A stretch of 64,000 nt of DNA from an uncultured delta proteobacterium (GCA_963842085.1 CAWJET010000002.1:1568001-1632000); one strand, 5' to 3'. Positions 5,248-54,982 are shown, numbered from the stretch's first letter. Notes: a model not told the origin generated them from the letters alone. Numbers and translations: made by a program.

Positions 5248-6879
5248 TCACGATCGCCGGATCGGGTTCTCCATGGCGTTCCACCATCCTCCGCCGAGCG
5301 CGACCAGAAGTGCACCGGTGTCCTGAAAGCGTTGGCCCATCGCCTGAATATAGCCGAGTTGCGCTTGCTGAAATTGGTAGTCCGCGATCAGCACCTGCAG
5401 ATAATTCACCGTCCCCGCCTGGTAGTTCGCCGCTATCAAGTGCAACGCTTCCGCCGCTGCGCGGAGGGCGTGGGATTGCGCCTCGACCGTTTGAGCGTCG
5501 TGTTCTAGCAGGTTGCGGAAAAAGGGTTTTTGACTCCTGATGACATTGATCCAAGACGCATTCTCGTGATCGTAGTAATGCTTACTCTTCGCCGAAATCG
5601 TCTTTCATTGAGTTTTTCCGCAACCTGCTAGAGCATCAAGAGCATCTGCCACTTGCGCGAAGGCCGCAAGAACGGTCTGCCGATAGTTCGCGAGCGCCTG
5701 CCGATATGCGTCGATAGCGGCTTTCCGCTGATACCATAGAGTAGGTCCCTGAATCACAGGTGTGGCGAGACTGGCGCCGAGCGTCCAGAATGCCGCACTG
5801 CTTCCGAACAGGGTTGAGAGAGATGTGCTGTTCAATCCGTAGTTGGCATTCAGGGAGAAACTCGGAAACAGCGCTGCCGTCGCCACTCCGATCTGGGCGC
5901 TGGCGACATGGAGCTGTGCCTCAGCCACGAGGATATCCGGACGCTGCCGAACCAGATCGCTGGGCAGGCTGACGGGCACATCATCGGGAAGCGTCAGCTC
6001 AGCAAAAGTGACTCGCGGCGGCGCCCAATCGCCCGACTCCACGCCGGCCAACGTCGCGAGCAGGTGCCGTGTGTGCGCCAATTGCTGGCGAAGAGGCGGC
6101 ATCGTTGCTTGAGTCGTTGCCAGCTCGCTCTGAATGCTGAGTAGATTGGAGTAAGGAACGACACCAGCTTCGGCTTGCGCCCCCGTGATGCTGGTCTGCT
6201 CCCGCAGAAATCCGATGATCTGTTGCGTCGCGTCGATCTCGGCCTCGTACGCTGCCTCTGCTACGATCGCGTTGACGACGTTGCCCGACAAGGTGAGATA
6301 AGTGCCTTCGGCGGTGTAGTACTGGACATCTACCTGCGCACCAAGGCTTTCAACAGTGCGCCGCTCGCCGCCAAACACGTCGAGCACGTAGGTTGCAGTC
6401 GTTGAGAGCGTGTATAGACTGAAGATGCTGGTCTCGATGTTCTCACCGAAGCGCGCGGGCGAAAACTGTTGGCGCGTCGGCTGGAAGCCGGCACTAATCT
6501 GAGGGAAGAAGATTCCATAGCCCGCACGAAGATTATCCTGACTCTGGCGCAAGCTCGCTTGGGCGGCTTGCAGACTAGGGTTGTTGGCGATGGACTCCAT
6601 CACAACCGCGTCCAGCTTGGGGCAGTTGAATAGTCGCCACCAGTCCGCGGCGATTTCCGCACCGCGGCTGAAGTGCTGTACTGTTTCGTCTGCCGCGATC
6701 GTGCCTGTCGGGTCCTCCTGATAGTTGTACGTCATCGTCGGCCTGGGCGTGGGGGGACGCACGAAATTCGGACCGACTGCGCACGCCGCAAGGCCGCAGG
6801 AAAGCATCATCGCGCCGATAGCTATCGACAATCGAGGTTGGCAACTCGCGACGAAGCTATTTTTCCGCCACGTACACAT
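5248..6879 (-). pseudogene. NodT/TolC-family outer-membrane efflux lipoprotein interrupted by a MITE
   Basis: Lipobox LAAC-AVGPNF, WWRLF, RQRPDILVAEAQL. Removing 5509..5631 restores ...ADALDAL-EHDAQTVEAQ...HLIAANYQAG in frame. Confidence 0.9.
5509..5627. mobile_element. 119-bp non-autonomous MITE, copy 1
   Basis: 15-bp perfect TIRs CAGGTTGCGGAAAAA/TTTTTCCGCAACCTG; CTAG duplicated at 5505..5508 and 5628..5631. Confidence 0.95.
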
Positions 6880-45984: not shown

Positions 45985-46470
45985 ATGCAGGACGAGAGAT
46001 CTTTCAGGTCGCCGGAGCCGATCCCACAGCGGATCGCAAGGCTGAAGTCGTATTCGGTCGCCGAGCTGAAACAGCAATGGCAGGCGCTCTACCACTCCGA
46101 TCCACCACATCGCATCAGTCGCGAGCTTTTGACCCGTGCCGTGGCGTATCGCATCCAGGAGCAAGTCCACGGAGGGCTCAAACCCTCCACCCGCAGAATG
46201 CTAATTCGTCTAGCCAACGACGCGCGATCAGGACGGCCGCTCAGACCTGAGCCGGCCGCCGGAGCGCCGGCGGGGACTGTATTACTGCGCGAGTGGCATG
46301 GCGTAACTCATGAGGTGAGAGTGCTCGATTGGGGAGTGCTGTTCAAGCGAAAGCGCTATCGCTCGCTCACCGAGGTCGCCCAGCTGATCACCGGCGCGCA
46401 CTGGAATGGGCCACAGTTCTTCGGTTTGCGAGGCAGGCGAAAGCAGGAGACAAGTCATGAATCGAAGTGA
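45985..46470 (+). CDS. DUF2924-family protein
   Basis: AYRIQEQVHGGL, GTVLLREWHG..HEV, YRSLTEVAQLITGAHWNGPQFFGL. Confidence 0.9.
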   Translation: MQDERSFRSPEPIPQRIARLKSYSVAELKQQWQALYHSDPPHRISRELLTRAVAYRIQEQVHGGLKPSTRRMLIRLANDARSGRPLRPEPAAGAPAGTVLLREWHGVTHEVRVLDWGVLFKRKRYRSLTEVAQLITGAHWNGPQFFGLRGRRKQETSHESK

Positions 46471-48228
46471 CGGCGCTCCGAACCGGTGTGCGATCTATAC
46501 GCGCAAGTCCTCCGAGGAGGGGCTCGAGCAGAACTTCAACTCGCTGCACGCGCAGCGCCAGGCCTGTGAAGCATTCGTCAAGAGCCAAGTCGGCGAGGGC
46601 TGGCGCCTGATCAAGACAGCGTATGACGACGGCGGATTTTCCGGCGCGACCATGGATCGACCGGCCCTGAAAGCCCCGGTCGCCCACGTCAAGGAAAAGC
46701 GCATCGACGTGGTCGTGGTCTACAAAGTCGACCGTCTCACCCGGTCGCTGGCCGACTTCGCCAAGATCGTGGAAATCTTTGATGCCCACGGAGTTTCGTT
46801 TGTCACGGTCACGCAGCAGTTCAACACCACCACGTCGATGGGCCGATTAACCCTGAACGTGCTGCTCTCATTTGCACAGTTCGAACGCGAGGTGACCGGC
46901 GAGCGCATCCGCGACAAGATCGCGGCGTCCAAGCAGAAAGGGATGTGGATGGGAGGCACGCCGCCGCTGGGCTACGACCTGCGCGATCGTCGTCTAGTGG
47001 TAAACGAAGCCGAAGCTAAGACGGTGCAATTGATCTTTAAGCTCTATCTCGAATTCAAGACCTTGCGTAGGGTCAAAAAAGAACTGGACCGCAGGTCGAT
47101 TCTCTCCAAGCAACGGGTGTCGAGAGGTAGTGTACGGCACGGCGGTTTCCCTTTCGGACGCTGCGCGCTCTATCACCTGCTCGCCAATCCGGTCTACGTG
47201 GGCGAGATCCGGCACAAGAATGTCACCTACCCGGGTCAGCACGAAGCGATAATCGAAAGAGTGACTTGGCAGCAGGTTCAGGAGATGCTGAGCCAGAAAG
47301 CCGCTCACCCTCGGGGACGAACGGTCAGAAGAAGCCCTGGCCTCCTCATGGGCAAACTCTTCGATCAGAGCGGCGAGCCGCTGTATTCCTGCTGGGCGAA
47401 AAAAGGACAGCGGCGCTACAGGTACTTCGTCTCGAAGAGGCTGGTCAGGGGAACCGCGAAGCCGGATGAACGTGGGTGGCGCCTGCCTGCCGAACGAACT
47501 GAACTGGCGGTAATGGCCGGCACAAGACCAATGCTCTCGGATCGCGGGGCGCTGGCCTCAACCCTCAGAGCTTTTGGCTTCGCTGCTGCAGAACTCAAGC
47601 AGGCGGTCGGGGCAATCGATTCGAAGGTCAAATCTCATCAGCGGGTCGAGACGGCAGAGGATACGGGGACGCTCATAGAGCGAGTCGAGCTAAGGCGGGA
47701 CGGAATGCAGATCACACTCAATCTACGAGCGCTTCTGCCACCCGATCGGTTCCCCGCCGGCGGAGCCAACCTCCGAATGACCCGTCTTGTTCCGCTGCAG
47801 ATGAGGCGTCGTGGCGTGGAAACGCGCTGGTGCTCCCAAGCGAAGCGGTCGTAGCTCCGCGGACAGATCCTGCCCTGCTTCGAGCATTGGCCCGCGGGTA
47901 CCAGTGGTTCGGCGAACTCGCGGCAGGAACTGCCACTTTAACCAGTCAGATCGCCATTCGAGAAGGTGTGAGCGAAAGCTATGTGCGTCATATGGTGCCG
48001 CTAGCCCTGCTCGCTCCAGCAGTCGTTGAATCTATCTGCGCCGGGCGGCAAGGCGTCTGCCTCTCGGCCGAGCGCCTCAAGGTTCTGGCCGGCGTTCCTA
48101 TCGAATGGGATGCACAGCAGCGACTGCTGGCGGATTTAGAAACGTCCCCCCTTTTCCTTCTCCCTTCTGAGACCTCCAGGGCCCCCATCGATTCTGGCGA
48201 AAGATCAAGCGTCCAAGGCGCCAACTAG
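46457..48228 (+). pseudogene. Large serine recombinase; frameshift near 47828 separates the C-terminal tail
   Basis: CAIYTRKSS, YDDGGFSG, VYKVDRLTRS, FAQFERE, GGTPPLGY, YRYFVS; the tail DPALLRALARG..W is in the next frame. Confidence 0.85.
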
Positions 48229-48794: not shown

Positions 48795-51080
48795 TCAGAG
48801 ACCGACCTTCCTCAGCCTTAGCGCGTTGGCGATCACCGACACGGAGCTCAGACTCATCGCGGCGCTCGCGATAATTGGACTCAGCAGCACACCAAATGCC
48901 GGATAAAGAACGCCGGCTGCGATTGGTATACCAAGGACGTTGTAGATAAACGCAAAGAAAAGGTTCTGCCGGATGTTTCGCATCGTCGCGCGGCTGAGGC
49001 GCCGCGCCTTCACGATACCGCGCAGATCCCCCTTGACCAGGGTGACGCCCGCGCTCTCCATTGCCACGTCGGTGCCGGTGCCCATCGCAATCCCGACCTG
49101 TGCCTGCGCCAGCGCGGGTGCGTCGTTGATCCCGTCACCGGCCATCGCGACGATACGTCCTTCCGCTTGCAATCGCTTGACTACCGTGGCCTTCTGATCG
49201 GGCAACACCTCTGCCTCGACCCGATCGATGCCGAGTTTCTTCGCGACCGCCGCCGCTGTGATCTGGTTGTCGCCGGTCAGAAGAACGATCGTCACACCGT
49301 CATCCCGCAGCATCCTGAGTGCTTCCGGAGTGGACGGCTTGATCGGGTCGGCAACGCCGATGAGTCCGGCGCGGCAGCCATCGACAGCGACGAACATCAC
49401 GGTCTGCCCATCTTTTCGCTGAGCGTCCGCATCGGCGGAAACACCGATAGTGACGCCCAACTCGCGCATCATGTGCTGATTCCCGAGCGCAACTGGGCGG
49501 CCTTCGATGCGCCCGGTCACTCCTTGTCACGTCACGGATTTGAAGTCCTCGGCGGTCGCAAGCGTCAGCTTGCGCTCTTCGGCGCCGGCGACAATCGCTG
49601 CTGACAGCGGATGCTCGCTGCCCCGCTCAAGGCCGGCGGCGAGCCGCAACACCTCGGCGTCCGTGAAGCCGTTGAGCGCGGTGACCGAGACTAGCCGCGG
49701 CTTTCCCTCGGTCAGAGTCCCGGTCTTGTCGACGACGAGCGTGTCCACCTTTTCGAGAATCTCGAGCGCCTCAGCGTTCTTGATCAGTACGCCCGCAGTT
49801 GCGCCGCGGCCGGTGCCGACCATGATCGACATTGGAGTTGCAAGGCCTAGCGCGCATGGGCACGCGATGATCAGGACCGCGACCGCGTTCACGATTGCGT
49901 AAGCCATCCGCGGCTGCGGACCGACAATCGCCCAGACGATGAAAGTAATTACGGCCGCCAAAATGACGGCCGGGACGAAATACGATGCAACGATATCGAC
50001 GAGCCGCTGAATCGGAGCGCGGCTGCGTTGAGCATCGCTCACCATGCGGACGATCTGTGCGAGCAGAGTATCGCTGCCGACCCGCTCGGCACGCATGATG
50101 AATCCACCAGTTTCGTTGATGGTCGCTCCGATCAGCCTGTCGCCCGGTTTCTTCTCGACGGGTATTGGCTCGCCGGTAACCATCGACTCGTCAACCGAGC
50201 TGGTCCCCTCCAGAACTCCGCCGTCGATGGGGACTTTCTCGCCGGGACGAACGCGCAGCCGATCTCCGGGGACGACGCGATCGAGTGGGATGTCCTCTTC
50301 GCGTCCGTCAGGCCTGATCACGCGCGCGGTCTTCGGCGCCAATCCCAGCAACGCTCTGATCGCGCTGCTGGTGTTGCTTCGAGCACGAAGCTCGAGGACC
50401 TGTCCGAGCAGTACCAGCGCAGTGATTGCGGCAGCGGCCTCGAAGTAGACCGGAACGGTGCCATCAGCGGCGCGGAACGAATCGGGAAACAAACTCGGGA
50501 AGATAGCTGCGATCAGGCTGTAACCGTAGGCGACGCCAACGCCCATCCCGATCAACGTGAACATGTTGAGACTGCGGTTGACGATCGATTGCCAGCCGCG
50601 AACGAACAGCGGCCAGCCCGCCCACAGCACGGCGGGAGTTGCGAGCGCCAATTCGATCCAGGTCCGCAGCGACGCGGGCATCACGCGCTGAAGAGGACGG
50701 CCCGAAATCATGTCCGACATTTCGATCGCGATCAGCGGGATCGTGAGCGCGACGCTCATCCAGAAGCGCCGCGTCATGTCCGCCAGTTCCGGGGAAACCT
50801 CCTCACCGGCGCTGACAACGCGCGGCTCCAGCGTCATTCCGCATATTGGACAATTGCCCGGCTCGGAACGAACGATCTGCGGATGCTTCGGGCAGACGTA
50901 TTTGGTTTTTGAGACCGCCGGCATCGGCGCGACCGGTTCCAGCGCCATGCTGCACTTGGGACACGAACCCGGATGGTCCTGCCGAATCTCGGGATGCATC
51001 GGACAGGTGTAGTCGCGAGTCTCGCCGGCGCTCGCCACAGAATGCGCGGCCGAATTTTCGACTCCGTGCAGGTCGTTCAT
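48795..51080 (-). pseudogene. copA: Cu(I)-translocating P1B-type ATPase with an in-frame TGA at 49527..49529
   Basis: [52 protein letters not shown]; both halves are in the same frame. Confidence 0.9.
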
Positions 51081-51350: not shown

Positions 51351-52154
51351 CTAAACGCGCCGCGCGATAAACCGCGCCTGTGCGATTTTGCCCGCGCCCG
51401 CCATCTCGCCGATGAAACGGAACCCGTCGATGAGCGCCTCCAGCAGGTCGGTGCGGAACCCTACGGTCCGCAGGGCATCGTACCCAAACTGCATCTCGAC
51501 CATGTCGAGATATAGATCCACATGGCGTGCAAACCGTCCGGTGTCTTCCGCAACGCGCACCTCGCAGCCGTTTCCTGACAGCAGTTTGGCGTAGCCCGCA
51601 ATGTCCTCGACGTTGGCGAACATCATCGTGCCGAGAAAGCGCTGGGCCTCCGAACCAGTCAGTCCCACAGGCCCTTCGACCCAATCGGTGAAAGCAATCA
51701 CGCCCCCGGGCCGAACAATGCGCACTGCCTCCGCAATCAACCTCGGCTTGTCGGGGACGTAGCACCATGCGTCCTCGCTCCAGACGAAATCCGCGCTGGC
51801 CGACGGCAGGCCGCTCTGACAGGCATCGGCTAGAACAAACCGGATTTTATCGTCCATGCCCTCTTCATGGGTCAGCCGCCGACCGCGCTCGACGATTGCC
51901 TCGGTTATGTCCACGCCGACCATCGAGGCGACATGGCGAACCCTCACCAGAAAGCGCATGTCCGCGCCGTTGCAGCAACACAGATCGACCCCGCCCATCC
52001 CGGCCCTGATTCCGGCGCGTTCCGCCAGATCGATCGACGCCTTCATTCCTCCTATGTGAATTTGCTGCCCAAATATAAGTTGAAAGAGGTCGCCCGGCGC
52101 ACTGCTATAGACGGAGACTACATCCGTCACCCCGACGCCGGTTATAGACTTCAC
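51351..52154 (-). CDS. Class I SAM methyltransferase resembling sarcosine/dimethylglycine and phosphoethanolamine N-methyltransferases
   Basis: IFGQQIHIGG, VDLCCCNG (motif I), GVDIT, ADFVWSEDAWCY..DK, VRPGGVIAFTD; AAGGAGG RBS; 4-nt overlap with the upstream gene. Confidence 0.85.
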   Translation of the reverse strand: MKSITGVGVTDVVSVYSSAPGDLFQLIFGQQIHIGGMKASIDLAERAGIRAGMGGVDLCCCNGADMRFLVRVRHVASMVGVDITEAIVERGRRLTHEEGMDDKIRFVLADACQSGLPSASADFVWSEDAWCYVPDKPRLIAEAVRIVRPGGVIAFTDWVEGPVGLTGSEAQRFLGTMMFANVEDIAGYAKLLSGNGCEVRVAEDTGRFARHVDLYLDMVEMQFGYDALRTVGFRTDLLEALIDGFRFIGEMAGAGKIAQARFIARRV

Positions 52155-53176
52155 GATTGTTTCCTCCTTTCACCTTGAATCGCGCCGCTGGCCGCGCGGA
52201 TACCCTCGCGCATCTGCGGATCGCCATCTTTGAAAGTGAAATTCGTCAGCCACAGACGCAGTAGGTGCCGTTTTCTCTCCGGTTCCTTCCAGTCCTCATA
52301 TTCCGTGCGCGCGTGCAGGATCACTGCGTTCTTGAGGAACTGCATGTCGCCGGGCTCGAAGTCCATTTCTTGGTAAAAGGCCGGATCGTTTGCGATCGTG
52401 TCGATCAGATCCAGTAATTCAGTCTGAGCGGCAGTCAGGCGCGGCACTTCCGGGAACCGCTGTGCGTTGCGGATATACCAACCGATATAGAACGTGCCGA
52501 GACGCCCGTTCTCGTACCTGCAAATCGGAAAATTGAAATACCGCGGCTCTCCCGGTCCCGCTTCAGCCTCCCGATCCCAGAAGAAGTTTTCGAAAAGCAA
52601 GGGCGCCAGGTCGGGCCGCCGCCGCATCAGTTCGTTGAATATCGAAACCGAGCTGGCGATTCGGCTTAGTCCTCCCGATTTCGCGCGGTTGAGGCACATC
52701 AGGCCGATGATGTCGGCGCCGTCGGTGTGAAAGTCGAGTTTCATCCGCGTGCGATATAGCCGGATTCCGGGTTGCGTTGGGTCGGCTCCATCATCGCGCA
52801 CATGGCCCAGCGCATCGCCCTTGCGATTTTGGGGAACCGGGCACCCCATTTGCAGACCGATGAGCCAGTACGCGAATGATGCTTCCGCTTCAGTGTGATC
52901 CGCCGCCGGAAATCCTCTGACCAGGAAAAAGCCCCGGCCATCGTCCAGCTCTCGCATCCACGCCGCGATGGCAGGACCGAGCACCGGAAGCGGGTAGTCC
53001 GACGCGGAGATTTCCCTCAGCGCCTTGCCCATCCGCCGATACGCTTGTATAGCGGAATCGAGCTCCGCATTCTCCGCGTCGGACAGGACATGGATCCAGT
53101 CGCTTCGCTTGCTCTGCTGGGGGCCGAGCCATGCGGCCGGGCTACTTACGAATTTATCTGGAATTCTATTGGCCAT
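52151..53176 (-). CDS. TauD/TfdA (clavaminate-synthase-like) Fe(II)/2-oxoglutarate dioxygenase
   Basis: GRGFFLVRG, FHTD, GGLSRIASS, PGDMQFLKN, LHARTEY, RHLLRLWL. Confidence 0.9.
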   Translation of the reverse strand: MANRIPDKFVSSPAAWLGPQQSKRSDWIHVLSDAENAELDSAIQAYRRMGKALREISASDYPLPVLGPAIAAWMRELDDGRGFFLVRGFPAADHTEAEASFAYWLIGLQMGCPVPQNRKGDALGHVRDDGADPTQPGIRLYRTRMKLDFHTDGADIIGLMCLNRAKSGGLSRIASSVSIFNELMRRRPDLAPLLFENFFWDREAEAGPGEPRYFNFPICRYENGRLGTFYIGWYIRNAQRFPEVPRLTAAQTELLDLIDTIANDPAFYQEMDFEPGDMQFLKNAVILHARTEYEDWKEPERKRHLLRLWLTNFTFKDGDPQMREGIRAASGAIQGERRKQS

Positions 53177-53191
53177 CGAATCTGTCTCGCG

Positions 53192-54004
53192 TCAGCTTCG
53201 CGCCGGCTTGCGGGCCCGGACGAAGGCGCTTATGAATTTGCCGTTCGCCATTTGCGCGAATTTCTCGAGGTCTGGATTTTCCGCAAGAAATCCTTGCGCG
53301 TCGGCCGCCGTATAGATCCGCGTCGCTTCCACTTCGATTTGTTCAAATCCCGCCGCAGCGAGCTTCGATTGGTATTCCGACTCGTTCAGCGCCCCGGCGA
53401 TGCATCCGGCCCACAGCTCGACGCGGCGACGAATCTCGCCCGGCATCTCACCGCGGACCACGATGTCCGAAACGGCGAATCGTCCCCCTGGCTTCAGCAC
53501 GCGGAACGCCTCGTGCAGCACCCGATCCTTGTCGGCCGACAGATTGATCACGCAGTTTGAGATGATTACATCCACCGAATTGTCGGGCAGCGGGATATGC
53601 TCGATCTCGCCTTTGAGGATTTCGACATTCTGGACACCCGCTTTGCGTTGGTTGTCGCGCGCAAGGGCGAGCATCTCGTCAGTCATGTCGAGCCCGTACG
53701 CCTTGCCCGCCGGCCCAACTCTTCGCGCTGAGAGCAGCACGTCGATCCCGCCACCTGAGCCCAGGTCGAGCACGATTTCGCCCGGCTTCAGCTCGGCGAG
53801 CGCTGTTGGATTCCCGCATCCCAGCGACGCCGCAAGCGCCTGGGCGGGAATCAATGCGGTCTCACTCTCGCGGTAGAGATTCGAGGTGATCGGGTTTCCC
53901 GCGGGCGCTGCCGAGCCGCAGCACGAGGCGCCCTGTTCGGTGACTCGCCGCGCCGCTTGCGCGTACTCTTCCCTGACCTTCTCCCTTATCGATTCATTAC
54001 TCAT
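53192..54004 (-). CDS. arsM: Arsenite S-adenosylmethionine methyltransferase
   Basis: SCCG, SLGCGNP, LDLGSGGGID, GLDMTDEM, ISNCVINL, WAGCIAGAL: all conserved ArsM Cys positions are present. Confidence 0.95.
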   Translation of the reverse strand: MSNESIREKVREEYAQAARRVTEQGASCCGSAAPAGNPITSNLYRESETALIPAQALAASLGCGNPTALAELKPGEIVLDLGSGGGIDVLLSARRVGPAGKAYGLDMTDEMLALARDNQRKAGVQNVEILKGEIEHIPLPDNSVDVIISNCVINLSADKDRVLHEAFRVLKPGGRFAVSDIVVRGEMPGEIRRRVELWAGCIAGALNESEYQSKLAAAGFEQIEVEATRIYTAADAQGFLAENPDLEKFAQMANGKFISAFVRARKPARS

Positions 54005-54368
54005 CGTGACCTCCATGCCTGCCCGTTATTTTGCGGGAGAGGCGATTAGCTGATAGCGAACGATCTGGCGATGCGCCCGGCGTCTTGTGAAGACCGGCGC
54101 AACAGTCCTCGGTCATGAACTGGATCAACTTGGCGGCTTGCGGCCAATTGACTGCGTAATAGATGAATCGTCCCGCGCGCTGCGCCGTCAGCAGCCCGCA
54201 TCTGGTCAATGCGTCCAGGTGATGAGACAGCGTCGAGCCCGGCATCTTGACCCGGCGCTTGATCTCCTCCACGCAGGTTCCTTGCGGCCCGGCGCGCACC
54301 AGCAGACGGAAGATCTCGAGCCGGCCAGATTGCCCCAGAGCGCTGAATTGTTCGACGTATCGATTCAC
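53997..54368 (-). CDS. arsR: ArsR-family repressor with a C-terminal Cys pair
   Basis: ALGQSGRLEIFRLLVRAGPQG, STLSHHL, GRFIYY, TEDCCAG. Confidence 0.9.
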   Translation of the reverse strand: MNRYVEQFSALGQSGRLEIFRLLVRAGPQGTCVEEIKRRVKMPGSTLSHHLDALTRCGLLTAQRAGRFIYYAVNWPQAAKLIQFMTEDCCAGLHKTPGASPDRSLSANRLSRKITGRHGGHDE

Positions 54369-54375
54369 TACGACT

Positions 54376-54398
54376 TTTCTAGTATCATCGAAATGATA
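54376..54398 (-). promoter_or_regulatory. Putative ArsR operator overlapping the promoter
   Basis: Overlapping dyads TATCAT-N4-ATGATA and TTTCGA-N6-TAGAAA just upstream of the arsR GTG; TTGCTT -35-like hexamer upstream. Confidence 0.55.
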
Positions 54399-54429
54399 AA
54401 TAAGCAAGCGCTGTAAGCGCCGGAGAGAA

Positions 54430-54982
54430 AATCCCTCAGTGAAGCGGCCGGACAGGCTGGCCGCGCCGGAGTAAAACTCCAGCACGAGATAGCCCTTCAG
54501 CCTGGAGGGTTGAAGGCCACTCAGTCCCTACTCCGCCAAGGCCACAAACGAGGTCGAACCGCCGAAGATTCCGCCGTAGAAGAGCCGAACCGAATCGGTT
54601 CGCGAGATTCCCAACTCCTCGAGATGCCGACCGACTCCGCGAACATCCCGCTTTGCTCATAGAGCGGCTCGGTCCAGCTCAGCACCGGCAGCCACAGCGT
54701 GTCGGCGATCTTTACCCCGACGCCCATCCTTGCCAACAACCCCTTCCAATGATCGCCGTAGAGAGTCTCCGCATCGATCGCTGTCTGGCCCAACAGCCTG
54801 GCCTCTTCGCGGCCCATCTCCTCGTACGAACCATAGAGGTACAGCACTATCAGGCCGCCTCGATCCTCACGGCGAGGCACTCTGTTGGAGGCGTGTTGGG
54901 CCGGGCCCAGATGGCAGCCGACCAAAAGCAGCCAAGCGATTGAAACGATCCTGCGAAGACCTGAAAGCTGATTAACGGTCAT
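54430..54982 (-). pseudogene. N-terminal remnant of a C45-peptidase-like lipoprotein
   Basis: LLLVGC lipobox-like, VLYLYGSYEEMG; frame breaks downstream. Confidence 0.4.

Follow-up and report, generated by a model that had tools for sequence, protein, structure and literature searches.

A four-gene ars operon of an uncultured delta proteobacterium couples arsR and arsM to a TauD/TfdA-family oxygenase and a second methyltransferase with likely arsenic-related functions

We analysed a 64,000-nt stretch of DNA (hereafter the window) from an uncultured delta proteobacterium (GCA_963842085.1, CAWJET010000002.1:1568001-1632000), in which four intact co-directional open reading frames (ORFs) occupy positions 51351-54485 of the minus strand in the order arsR, arsM, a gene for a TauD/TfdA-family Fe(II)/2-oxoglutarate (2OG) oxygenase, and a gene for a second methyltransferase dependent on S-adenosylmethionine (SAM), here called MT2 (Table 1). 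Their junctions and ribosome-binding sites support an operon structure. The arsR stop TAA (53999-53997) lies inside arsM and gives an 8-nt overlap if arsM begins at ATG 54004; the arsM stop TGA (53194-53192) is followed by a 15-nt gap and the oxygenase ATG at 53176; and GTGA at 52154-52151 is common to the oxygenase stop and the MT2 start, a 4-nt overlap with AAGGAGG upstream. An earlier note, made from the sequence of this DNA alone, had described such an operon, and its gene content and junctions agree with the ORFs, the domain models and our reading of the sequence. Domain and curated-model scans found neither an efflux pump (ACR3 or ArsB) nor an arsenate reductase within the operon, which is not a canonical ars resistance operon. 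Homologues of both accessory genes, the oxygenase and MT2, repeatedly stand beside ars genes in other genomes, and both genes very probably have an arsenic-related function.

Table 1. Positions of the operon genes, the region 5' of arsR, flanking features and related loci (PEAMT, phosphoethanolamine N-methyltransferase; SDMT, sarcosine/dimethylglycine methyltransferase)
Feature	Position	Strand	Model or remark
arsR	53997..54368 (longest ORF to 54485)	-	NF033788, PF01022; start predicted
arsM	53192..54016 (likely start ATG 54004, 270 aa)	-	NF008823
TauD/TfdA-family Fe(II)/2OG oxygenase, FrbJ/TtnM-like subgroup	52151..53176, 341 aa	-	PF02668
MT2, class I SAM methyltransferase, PEAMT/SDMT-like fold	51351..52154, 267 aa	-	generic methyltransferase domains
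Conserved putative promoter/operator region 5' of arsR	54381..54408	-	contains dyad 54383-54398 and block ATTTCGATGATACTAGAA
Heavy-metal P-type ATPase, broken	48795..51080	-	one in-frame stop 49527-49529; context, outside operon
Large serine recombinase	46406..47854	+	PF00239 and PF07508; context
Protein of ~180 aa	L122 576-1136; L005 7027-7551; also L097, L106, L108, L114, L116, L119
Distant MT2 homologues, examples	L138, L143, L145, L150, L166, L172 and others; MT2 match ~6001-6798 in most

ArsR passed the ArsR/SmtB model NF033788 (67.8 bits, cut-off 55) and also matched PF01022 (34.1 bits, cut-off 22). Its C-terminal vicinal Cys pair lies in the motif EDCCAG (Cys128/129 in ORF numbering), with no third Cys after it. 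ArsM passed the arsenite methyltransferase model NF008823 with 365.8 bits (cut-off 263) over model positions 2-270 of 272; the enzyme requires four conserved cysteines for arsenic binding, and the expected motifs contain cysteines 32/33, 67, 155 and 205. Translation of arsR probably begins at GTG 54368, giving a product of 123 aa, because the longest ORF would cross a conserved promoter/operator block, and that of arsM probably begins at ATG 54004, because GGAGG sits 5 nt before it. The arsR/arsM overlap described earlier stood, and both starts needed these small corrections.

The dyad TATCATcgaaATGATA, which the earlier note had placed before the operon as its operator, is present upstream of arsR and is rare by chance, with 0.04 matches expected in the window at one mismatch or fewer and one found in 4 of 100 shuffles. 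However, the exact dyad is absent from every related locus, and since it is confined to this genome it was dropped as the operator and replaced by a conserved block. What the relatives share instead is ATTTCGATGATACTAGAA-N2-ATCG, kept just 5' of the GTG start in 24 related loci and in a second copy within the same genome. A consensus sigma-70 scan gave no match in the region 54381-54408, so that we infer a promoter there rather than read one. Within 54368-54408, and likewise 5' of arsR in the 24 related loci and in L085, a locus of the second copy, the conserved block stops about 12 nt before the arsR GTG and leaves no space for a ribosome-binding site, so that arsR may be translated from an mRNA with no leader or almost none.

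The oxygenase matched PF02668 (TauD) with 119.4 bits (cut-off 27) over model positions 6-267 of 267. Its H150/D152/H288 iron triad and the 2OG-binding R303 are invariant among 25 homologues and align with the equivalent residues of 7n7v and 5eqn. No NCBIfam equivalog was passed (TMLD 18.4 bits, cut-off 268; TmpA 17.2, cut-off 400; BBOX 16.7, cut-off 415), and no NCBIfam taurine dioxygenase model was matched at E up to 0.01. By sequence, the only strong-scoring solved relatives were FrbJ (5eqn, profile E 4e-63) and TtnM (7n7v, 3.9e-64). The same two entries headed the Foldseek search with the AlphaFold model, whose mean predicted local distance difference test (pLDDT) value was 84.7: 5eqn, titled 'phosphonate hydroxylase', and 7n7v, from tautomycetin biosynthesis, both with probability 1.00, template modelling (TM) scores of 0.71-0.72 for the query and as high as 0.89 for the target, and 27-31% identity, with amino-acid hydroxylases and TmpA ranking far below. 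An identification of 7n7v as DfmD was ruled out, as the DfmD paper reports that no crystal was obtained. ESM Atlas returned generic names only, for the oxygenase and for MT2. As a lead and not as a substrate assignment, these relatives suggest that members of the subgroup hydroxylate small molecules, including at least one alkylphosphonate; because FrbJ, the closest solved relative, bears the title quoted above, we take the subgroup to accept small alkyl oxyanions.

The genomic neighbourhoods of the oxygenase were compared in 81 loci, comprising the best 80 of at least 586 relatives (pattern scan, one genome per prokaryote species) and L001; ORFs came from a simple script weighted by GC content at third codon positions (GC3), and all 716 within 4 kb were clustered and the cluster representatives annotated. 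ArsC, ArsI, ArsM or ACR3 occurred within 4 kb in 33 of the 81 loci, and in 38 when ArsR was included. The earlier note had made linkage of the homologues to ars genes elsewhere its test, and such linkage was thus found, in several phyla and gene orders. The recurrent clusters were ArsR-family regulators (24 loci), low-molecular-weight-phosphatase-type ArsC (19), ArsI/CadI (13), ArsM (12, in a cluster that also includes MT2), ACR3 (11), LysR regulators (10), MIP (aquaglyceroporin) channels (8) and TctC receptors (6). Among 113 further neighbours within 1.5 kb at the ars-side loci, a Pfam tally showed each other family in three at most. One phytochelatin synthase was seen among the oxygenase neighbours.

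Gene order differs between lineages. The taxonomic order of this bacterium has arsR-arsM-oxygenase(-MT2); L001 and L006 have arsR-arsM-oxygenase without MT2; Myxococcota have arsM-oxygenase, Acidimicrobiia have arsR-oxygenase-arsM, and an alphaproteobacterium has arsR-oxygenase-arsC-MIP. Six loci have a co-directional arsI-oxygenase pair, with spacing from a 4-nt overlap to a 259-nt gap. A vicinal Cys pair is present in 12 of the 13 ArsI-like neighbours, and the linked ArsRs show three Cys arrangements, namely a C-terminal CC with or without a third Cys, a CVC in the DNA-binding region, and a C-terminal CCP. In the oxygenase tree (77 rows, with 5 loci left out as no ORF lay over the match, and with L015 and L033 as antisense miscalls on long branches), 25 unlinked homologues formed one clade with a support of 95 in the Shimodaira–Hasegawa-like approximate likelihood ratio test (SH-aLRT), their neighbours being LysR, TctC or nothing recurrent. 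Outside this clade, 38 of 52 rows were linked to ars genes or ArsR, including 10/10 of an Acidimicrobiia clade, 5/5 of the window's clade, and several Myxococcota, Alpha- and Gammaproteobacteria. The ars-link label changed 8 times on the tree against a shuffled mean of 25.2, with none of 500 shuffles as low; this statistic overstates independence because kin share labels, and the differing gene orders weigh more. On these comparative grounds the oxygenase clade is very probably an ars gene itself, occurring with ArsR, ArsI, ArsM, ArsC, ACR3 and aquaglyceroporin genes in several phyla.

The oxygenase could alternatively act on a non-arsenic substrate, such as a phosphonate or sulfonate scavenged when arsenate disturbs phosphate or sulfur metabolism, and be merely co-regulated with the ars genes. 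Such a role would suit the phosphonate hydroxylase that is its closest solved relative, the sister clade with LysR and TctC neighbours and no ars link, and a PstS-like phosphate-binding protein (3633-4679 in L004) encoded just 5' of a related arsR-arsM-oxygenase-MT2 cassette. Nevertheless, neither a phosphonate transporter nor a partner enzyme for phosphonate cleavage turns up repeatedly in the neighbourhoods, and the immediate partners are ArsI, ArsM and ArsR, often overlapping or at very short spacing, which leaves this explanation improbable.

MT2 matches only generic class I methyltransferase domains. Its best solved relatives by sequence are plant and parasite PEAMTs (5wp4, E 8.7e-16), MitM, a sugar O-methyltransferase and a putative SDMT. 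The predicted model (pLDDT 90.4) combines a methyltransferase core with a C-terminal lid and reaches TM 0.80-0.85 to 5wp4 (0.80), 2o57 (the putative SDMT, 0.85), 4kri and 3uj6. The description of MT2 as SDMT/PEAMT-like in the earlier note is thus fair for the fold, and the likeness, as judged from the predicted model, is one of fold only. Its label of an onium-type methyltransferase did not hold: MT2 fails the SDMT equivalog NF041675 with 47.1 bits against a cut-off of 550, and onium chemistry cannot be read from the protein because its fold neighbours include O- and C-methyltransferases. Motif I has the unusual form DLCCCNG, conserved across the MT2 family, and a comparison of homologues showed no Binatia-specific cysteines.

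Of 80 MT2 loci fetched, 28 had at least 70% identity and 52 had 57-65%. Linkage of MT2 to ars genes elsewhere, which had also been set as a test, was evident in the closer group, where arsM lies directly 5' of MT2 in 24 of the 28 loci and arsR nearly always precedes arsM. The oxygenase stands between arsM and MT2 in one of these 24 loci (on the contig of L005) and is lacking from the other 23. With the same queries, the 52 distant loci gave no match to ArsR, ArsC, ArsI, ACR3, MIP or the oxygenase and so serve as an internal control, and a 42% ArsM-like gene was present in two of them. These distant loci belong mostly to Planctomycetota, Lentisphaerota and Anaerolineales, and their MT2 homologues head a conserved operon with three 2-hydroxyacyl-CoA-dehydratase-like (HGD-D) proteins (23, 16 and 17 loci) and a BcrAD/BadFG ATPase (10 loci), often beside selB (11 loci) and selA (6 loci); this operon may include a selenoprotein gene, or its products may act on a metalloid. 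In eight loci of the window's lineage, a protein of about 180 aa with no Pfam family and a weak sub-threshold match to the membrane-protein family DUF2306 is encoded between arsR and arsM or between the oxygenase and MT2.

These distributions bear on the proposal that ArsM, the oxygenase and MT2 act in a single biosynthesis, in which an organoarsenical is oxidatively processed and methylated to a quaternary arsonium (arsenobetaine or tetramethylarsonium, for example). In favour of such a route, translational coupling joins all three genes in the window and in two further genomes (L004, L005), the fold of MT2 approaches those of PEAMT and SDMT, and the abstract of PMC9609160 describes the biosynthesis of arsenobetaine as unknown. 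However, the three genes usually occur separately: MT2 is missing from most oxygenase loci with an ars link, L001 and L006 carry arsR-arsM-oxygenase only, and in other phyla the oxygenase accompanies ArsR, ArsI, ArsC or ACR3 without MT2, so that the oxygenase and MT2 need not belong to one pathway, as the earlier note had supposed. The failed SDMT model and the mixed fold neighbours of MT2 count against it too, as does the lack of a gene for building a C2 side chain on arsenic. Nothing was found that points to an arsenobetaine or tetramethylarsonium product, and a route of this kind appears quite improbable.

The flanks of the operon contain a broken but otherwise full-length heavy-metal P-type ATPase gene downstream, whose single in-frame stop marks either a recent pseudogene or an assembly error. 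On the upstream side, a 153-aa ORF that matches no family is accompanied by a gene for a universal stress protein and by further unrelated genes. Gene remnants had been described on both sides of the operon; the downstream one is borne out by the ATPase, and the upstream one is not, as the ORF there matches no family. The large serine recombinase, which together with a short overlapping ORF after it spans 46406-48228, 3 kb from the cassette, hints at a mobile region or island. The genome (4.93 Mb, two contigs, 100% complete) encodes arsR-arsC-acr3 on the other contig at C1:1067122-1069082 and contains no ArsI above the model cut-off. The reported lack of arsC, acr3 and arsB in the window was checked for its 48-58 kb part, and it means little because the genome encodes both arsC and acr3 elsewhere.

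A second arsR-arsM copy lies in the same genome (G000 C1:2584013-2585377; loci L003 and L085) with 80% DNA identity over 1360 nt to window positions 54395-53086, from the operator through arsM and into about 90 nt of the oxygenase gene. As only the first ~90 nt of that gene are kept, this copy reads as a truncated version of the same cassette. Among 151 sampled genomes of the order, the window's own included, a close oxygenase homologue was found in five, namely this genome and 4 of 7 of another genus, and in 0 of 43 others of its own genus. MT2 occurs in 33 of the 151, including 23 of the 43 (the tally includes the unpublished genome G065), and the usual arrangement in this order is arsR-arsM-MT2 with no oxygenase gene. 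ArsM and MT2 of the window share 88-93% identity with their counterparts in arsR-arsM-MT2 loci such as L094 and L098, and its oxygenase has at most 80% identity to anything found. The simplest history would be that a resident arsR-arsM-MT2 operon acquired the oxygenase gene, or that an exchange of the module took place, either of which the nearby recombinase would fit. The oxygenase could then be a horizontally inserted passenger with no functional link to the operon, as its scarcity in the order, the recombinase and the broken ATPase might suggest. Nevertheless, its ars linkage recurs in other phyla with different gene orders, and the insertion preserves tight coupling; a mere passenger is highly improbable.

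The recurrent partners of the oxygenase would suit chemistry on methylated arsenic. ArsM adds methyl groups to trivalent arsenic, ArsI breaks the C-As bond in trivalent organoarsenicals, and both use trivalent methylarsenic; TauD hydroxylates the carbon beside sulfur, after which sulfite leaves spontaneously. As the oxygenase repeatedly partners ArsM or ArsI and its nearest solved relative handles an alkyl oxyanion, we suggest that it could hydroxylate the carbon bound to pentavalent arsenic in dimethylarsenate, methylarsonate and possibly larger alkyl arsenicals. The alpha-hydroxy product would collapse spontaneously into an aldehyde and a trivalent arsenical, just as TauD frees sulfite from taurine, and the trivalent product would pass to ArsM for further methylation, up to volatile trimethylarsine, or to ArsI for final demethylation. 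Such cleavage would explain why the oxygenase is useful beside either ArsI or ArsM and would make a separate reductase unnecessary. The operon as a whole would be arsenic-responsive and repressed by its ArsR, which has a C-terminal Cys pair, ArsM would methylate As(III), and MT2 would be a second methyltransferase working with ArsM. Taken together, an arsenic-responsive operon with an oxygenase cleavage step and MT2 as partner of ArsM is the best explanation of the data, which we hold with somewhat less than even confidence; the specific C-As cleavage mechanism of the oxygenase is put forward tentatively, as a possible but doubtful step.

The main rival to this cleavage reading is that the oxygenase oxidises trivalent organoarsenicals, for example methylarsenite, MAs(III), to methylarsonate, MAs(V), as a functional analogue of ArsH guarding against the toxic intermediates of ArsM or the MAs(III) of neighbours. 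It would account for the position of the gene next to those of two enzymes that handle MAs(III), ArsM and ArsI, and no ArsH-like cluster appeared among the recurrent neighbours, among which no search aimed at ArsH was made. The ArsR of the window has the vicinal Cys pair only and presumably resembles methylarsenite-selective ArsRs, which would fit such oxidation if regulators of this type are indeed methylarsenite-selective. Nevertheless, heteroatom oxidation would be unusual chemistry for the TauD family, the oxygenase has no conserved Cys pair for binding a trivalent arsenical, and many of the linked ArsRs are of the As(III) type, with three Cys or CVC. We consider this rival unlikely.

Returning to cleavage of pentavalent arsenicals, several points also weigh against it. 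A demethylase beside ArsM looks like a futile cycle unless it returns pentavalent species to the trivalent pool. Ars-side and non-ars oxygenases differ at five positions only (W73, L140, G153, W233 and F315), none of them an obvious arsenic ligand, and the homologue alignment likewise showed no conserved Cys pair to take that part. The subgroup is not specific for phosphonate-like substrates, since TtnM, its other close solved relative, tailors a polyketide. Among the neighbourhoods, 43 of the 81 oxygenase loci have no nearby ars gene or ArsR, and the ORF calling was crude, leaving 5 loci without a called oxygenase ORF and 2 called on the wrong strand. As for MT2, the protein is almost unchanged between ars-linked and unlinked contexts, and for this reason its chemistry may not be arsenic-specific.

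Arsenic methylation and demethylation govern arsenic toxicity, mobility and uptake into rice. A passage of PMC6426599 calls the pathways sparsely studied, the mechanism of dimethylarsenate demethylation is described as unclear in passages of PMC10579292 and of PMC6426599, and ArsI is the sole dioxygenase mentioned in passages of a 2025 review of Bacillus arsenic mechanisms. In a search of open full texts, no paper connected a TauD-family enzyme with ars genes or gave the oxygenase or MT2 an arsenic function, although a description may exist elsewhere, for instance in the tables of a catalogue such as AsgeneDB (PMC9623898); a search on arsM with Binat* returned nothing relevant. Within this scope, the search supports the presumption of the earlier note that an ars operon with a TauD-type enzyme is undescribed. 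The two accessory enzyme families of this ars operon thus lack an assigned role in the searched literature. The oxygenase clade, which aerobic soil bacteria of several phyla carry in their ars operons, often beside ArsI or ArsM, is a concrete and cheaply testable candidate for a missing step. MT2, which regularly accompanies arsM in a soil lineage that is widespread and uncultured, is a second candidate. A bolder proposal is that the ars-linked oxygenase clade would be the first C-As-cleaving enzyme for pentavalent methylarsenicals, an aerobic dimethylarsenate/methylarsonate demethylase that needs no prior reduction and feeds ArsI or ArsM, and that MT2 would be a new metalloid methyltransferase using its Cys triplet; we regard it as somewhat unlikely, and if it is true the ars toolkit would gain two new gene families. 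Even if the mechanism is wrong, both families deserve the status of ars genes and could join the arsenic-gene catalogues used for metagenomes.

The proposed activity can be set beside those of known systems. Its outcome, oxidative C-As cleavage with O2 and Fe(II), would be that of ArsI, which has a glyoxalase/VOC-type fold and binds its trivalent substrates through a Cys pair, whereas the oxygenase is 2OG-dependent and has no such conserved pair. Its chemistry would copy that of TauD, a member of the same Pfam family, in hydroxylating beside a heteroatom and releasing a reduced oxyanion spontaneously, although the substrate would be an arsenical. FrbJ and TtnM belong to the same TauD/clavaminate-synthase-like subgroup and have the iron and 2OG ligands in common with the oxygenase; they are encoded in antibiotic gene clusters, whereas the oxygenase clade is found in ars operons. 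PEAMT and SDMT have 17-22% identity to MT2, which differs from them in motif I and in gene context, standing with arsM or, in other phyla, in the dehydratase-like operon. Finally, the cassette opens as other arsR-arsM operons do, with the gene for an ArsR repressor ahead of one for an arsenite methyltransferase that passes the NCBIfam model, and it differs from them in the two further enzyme genes that are translationally coupled behind arsM.

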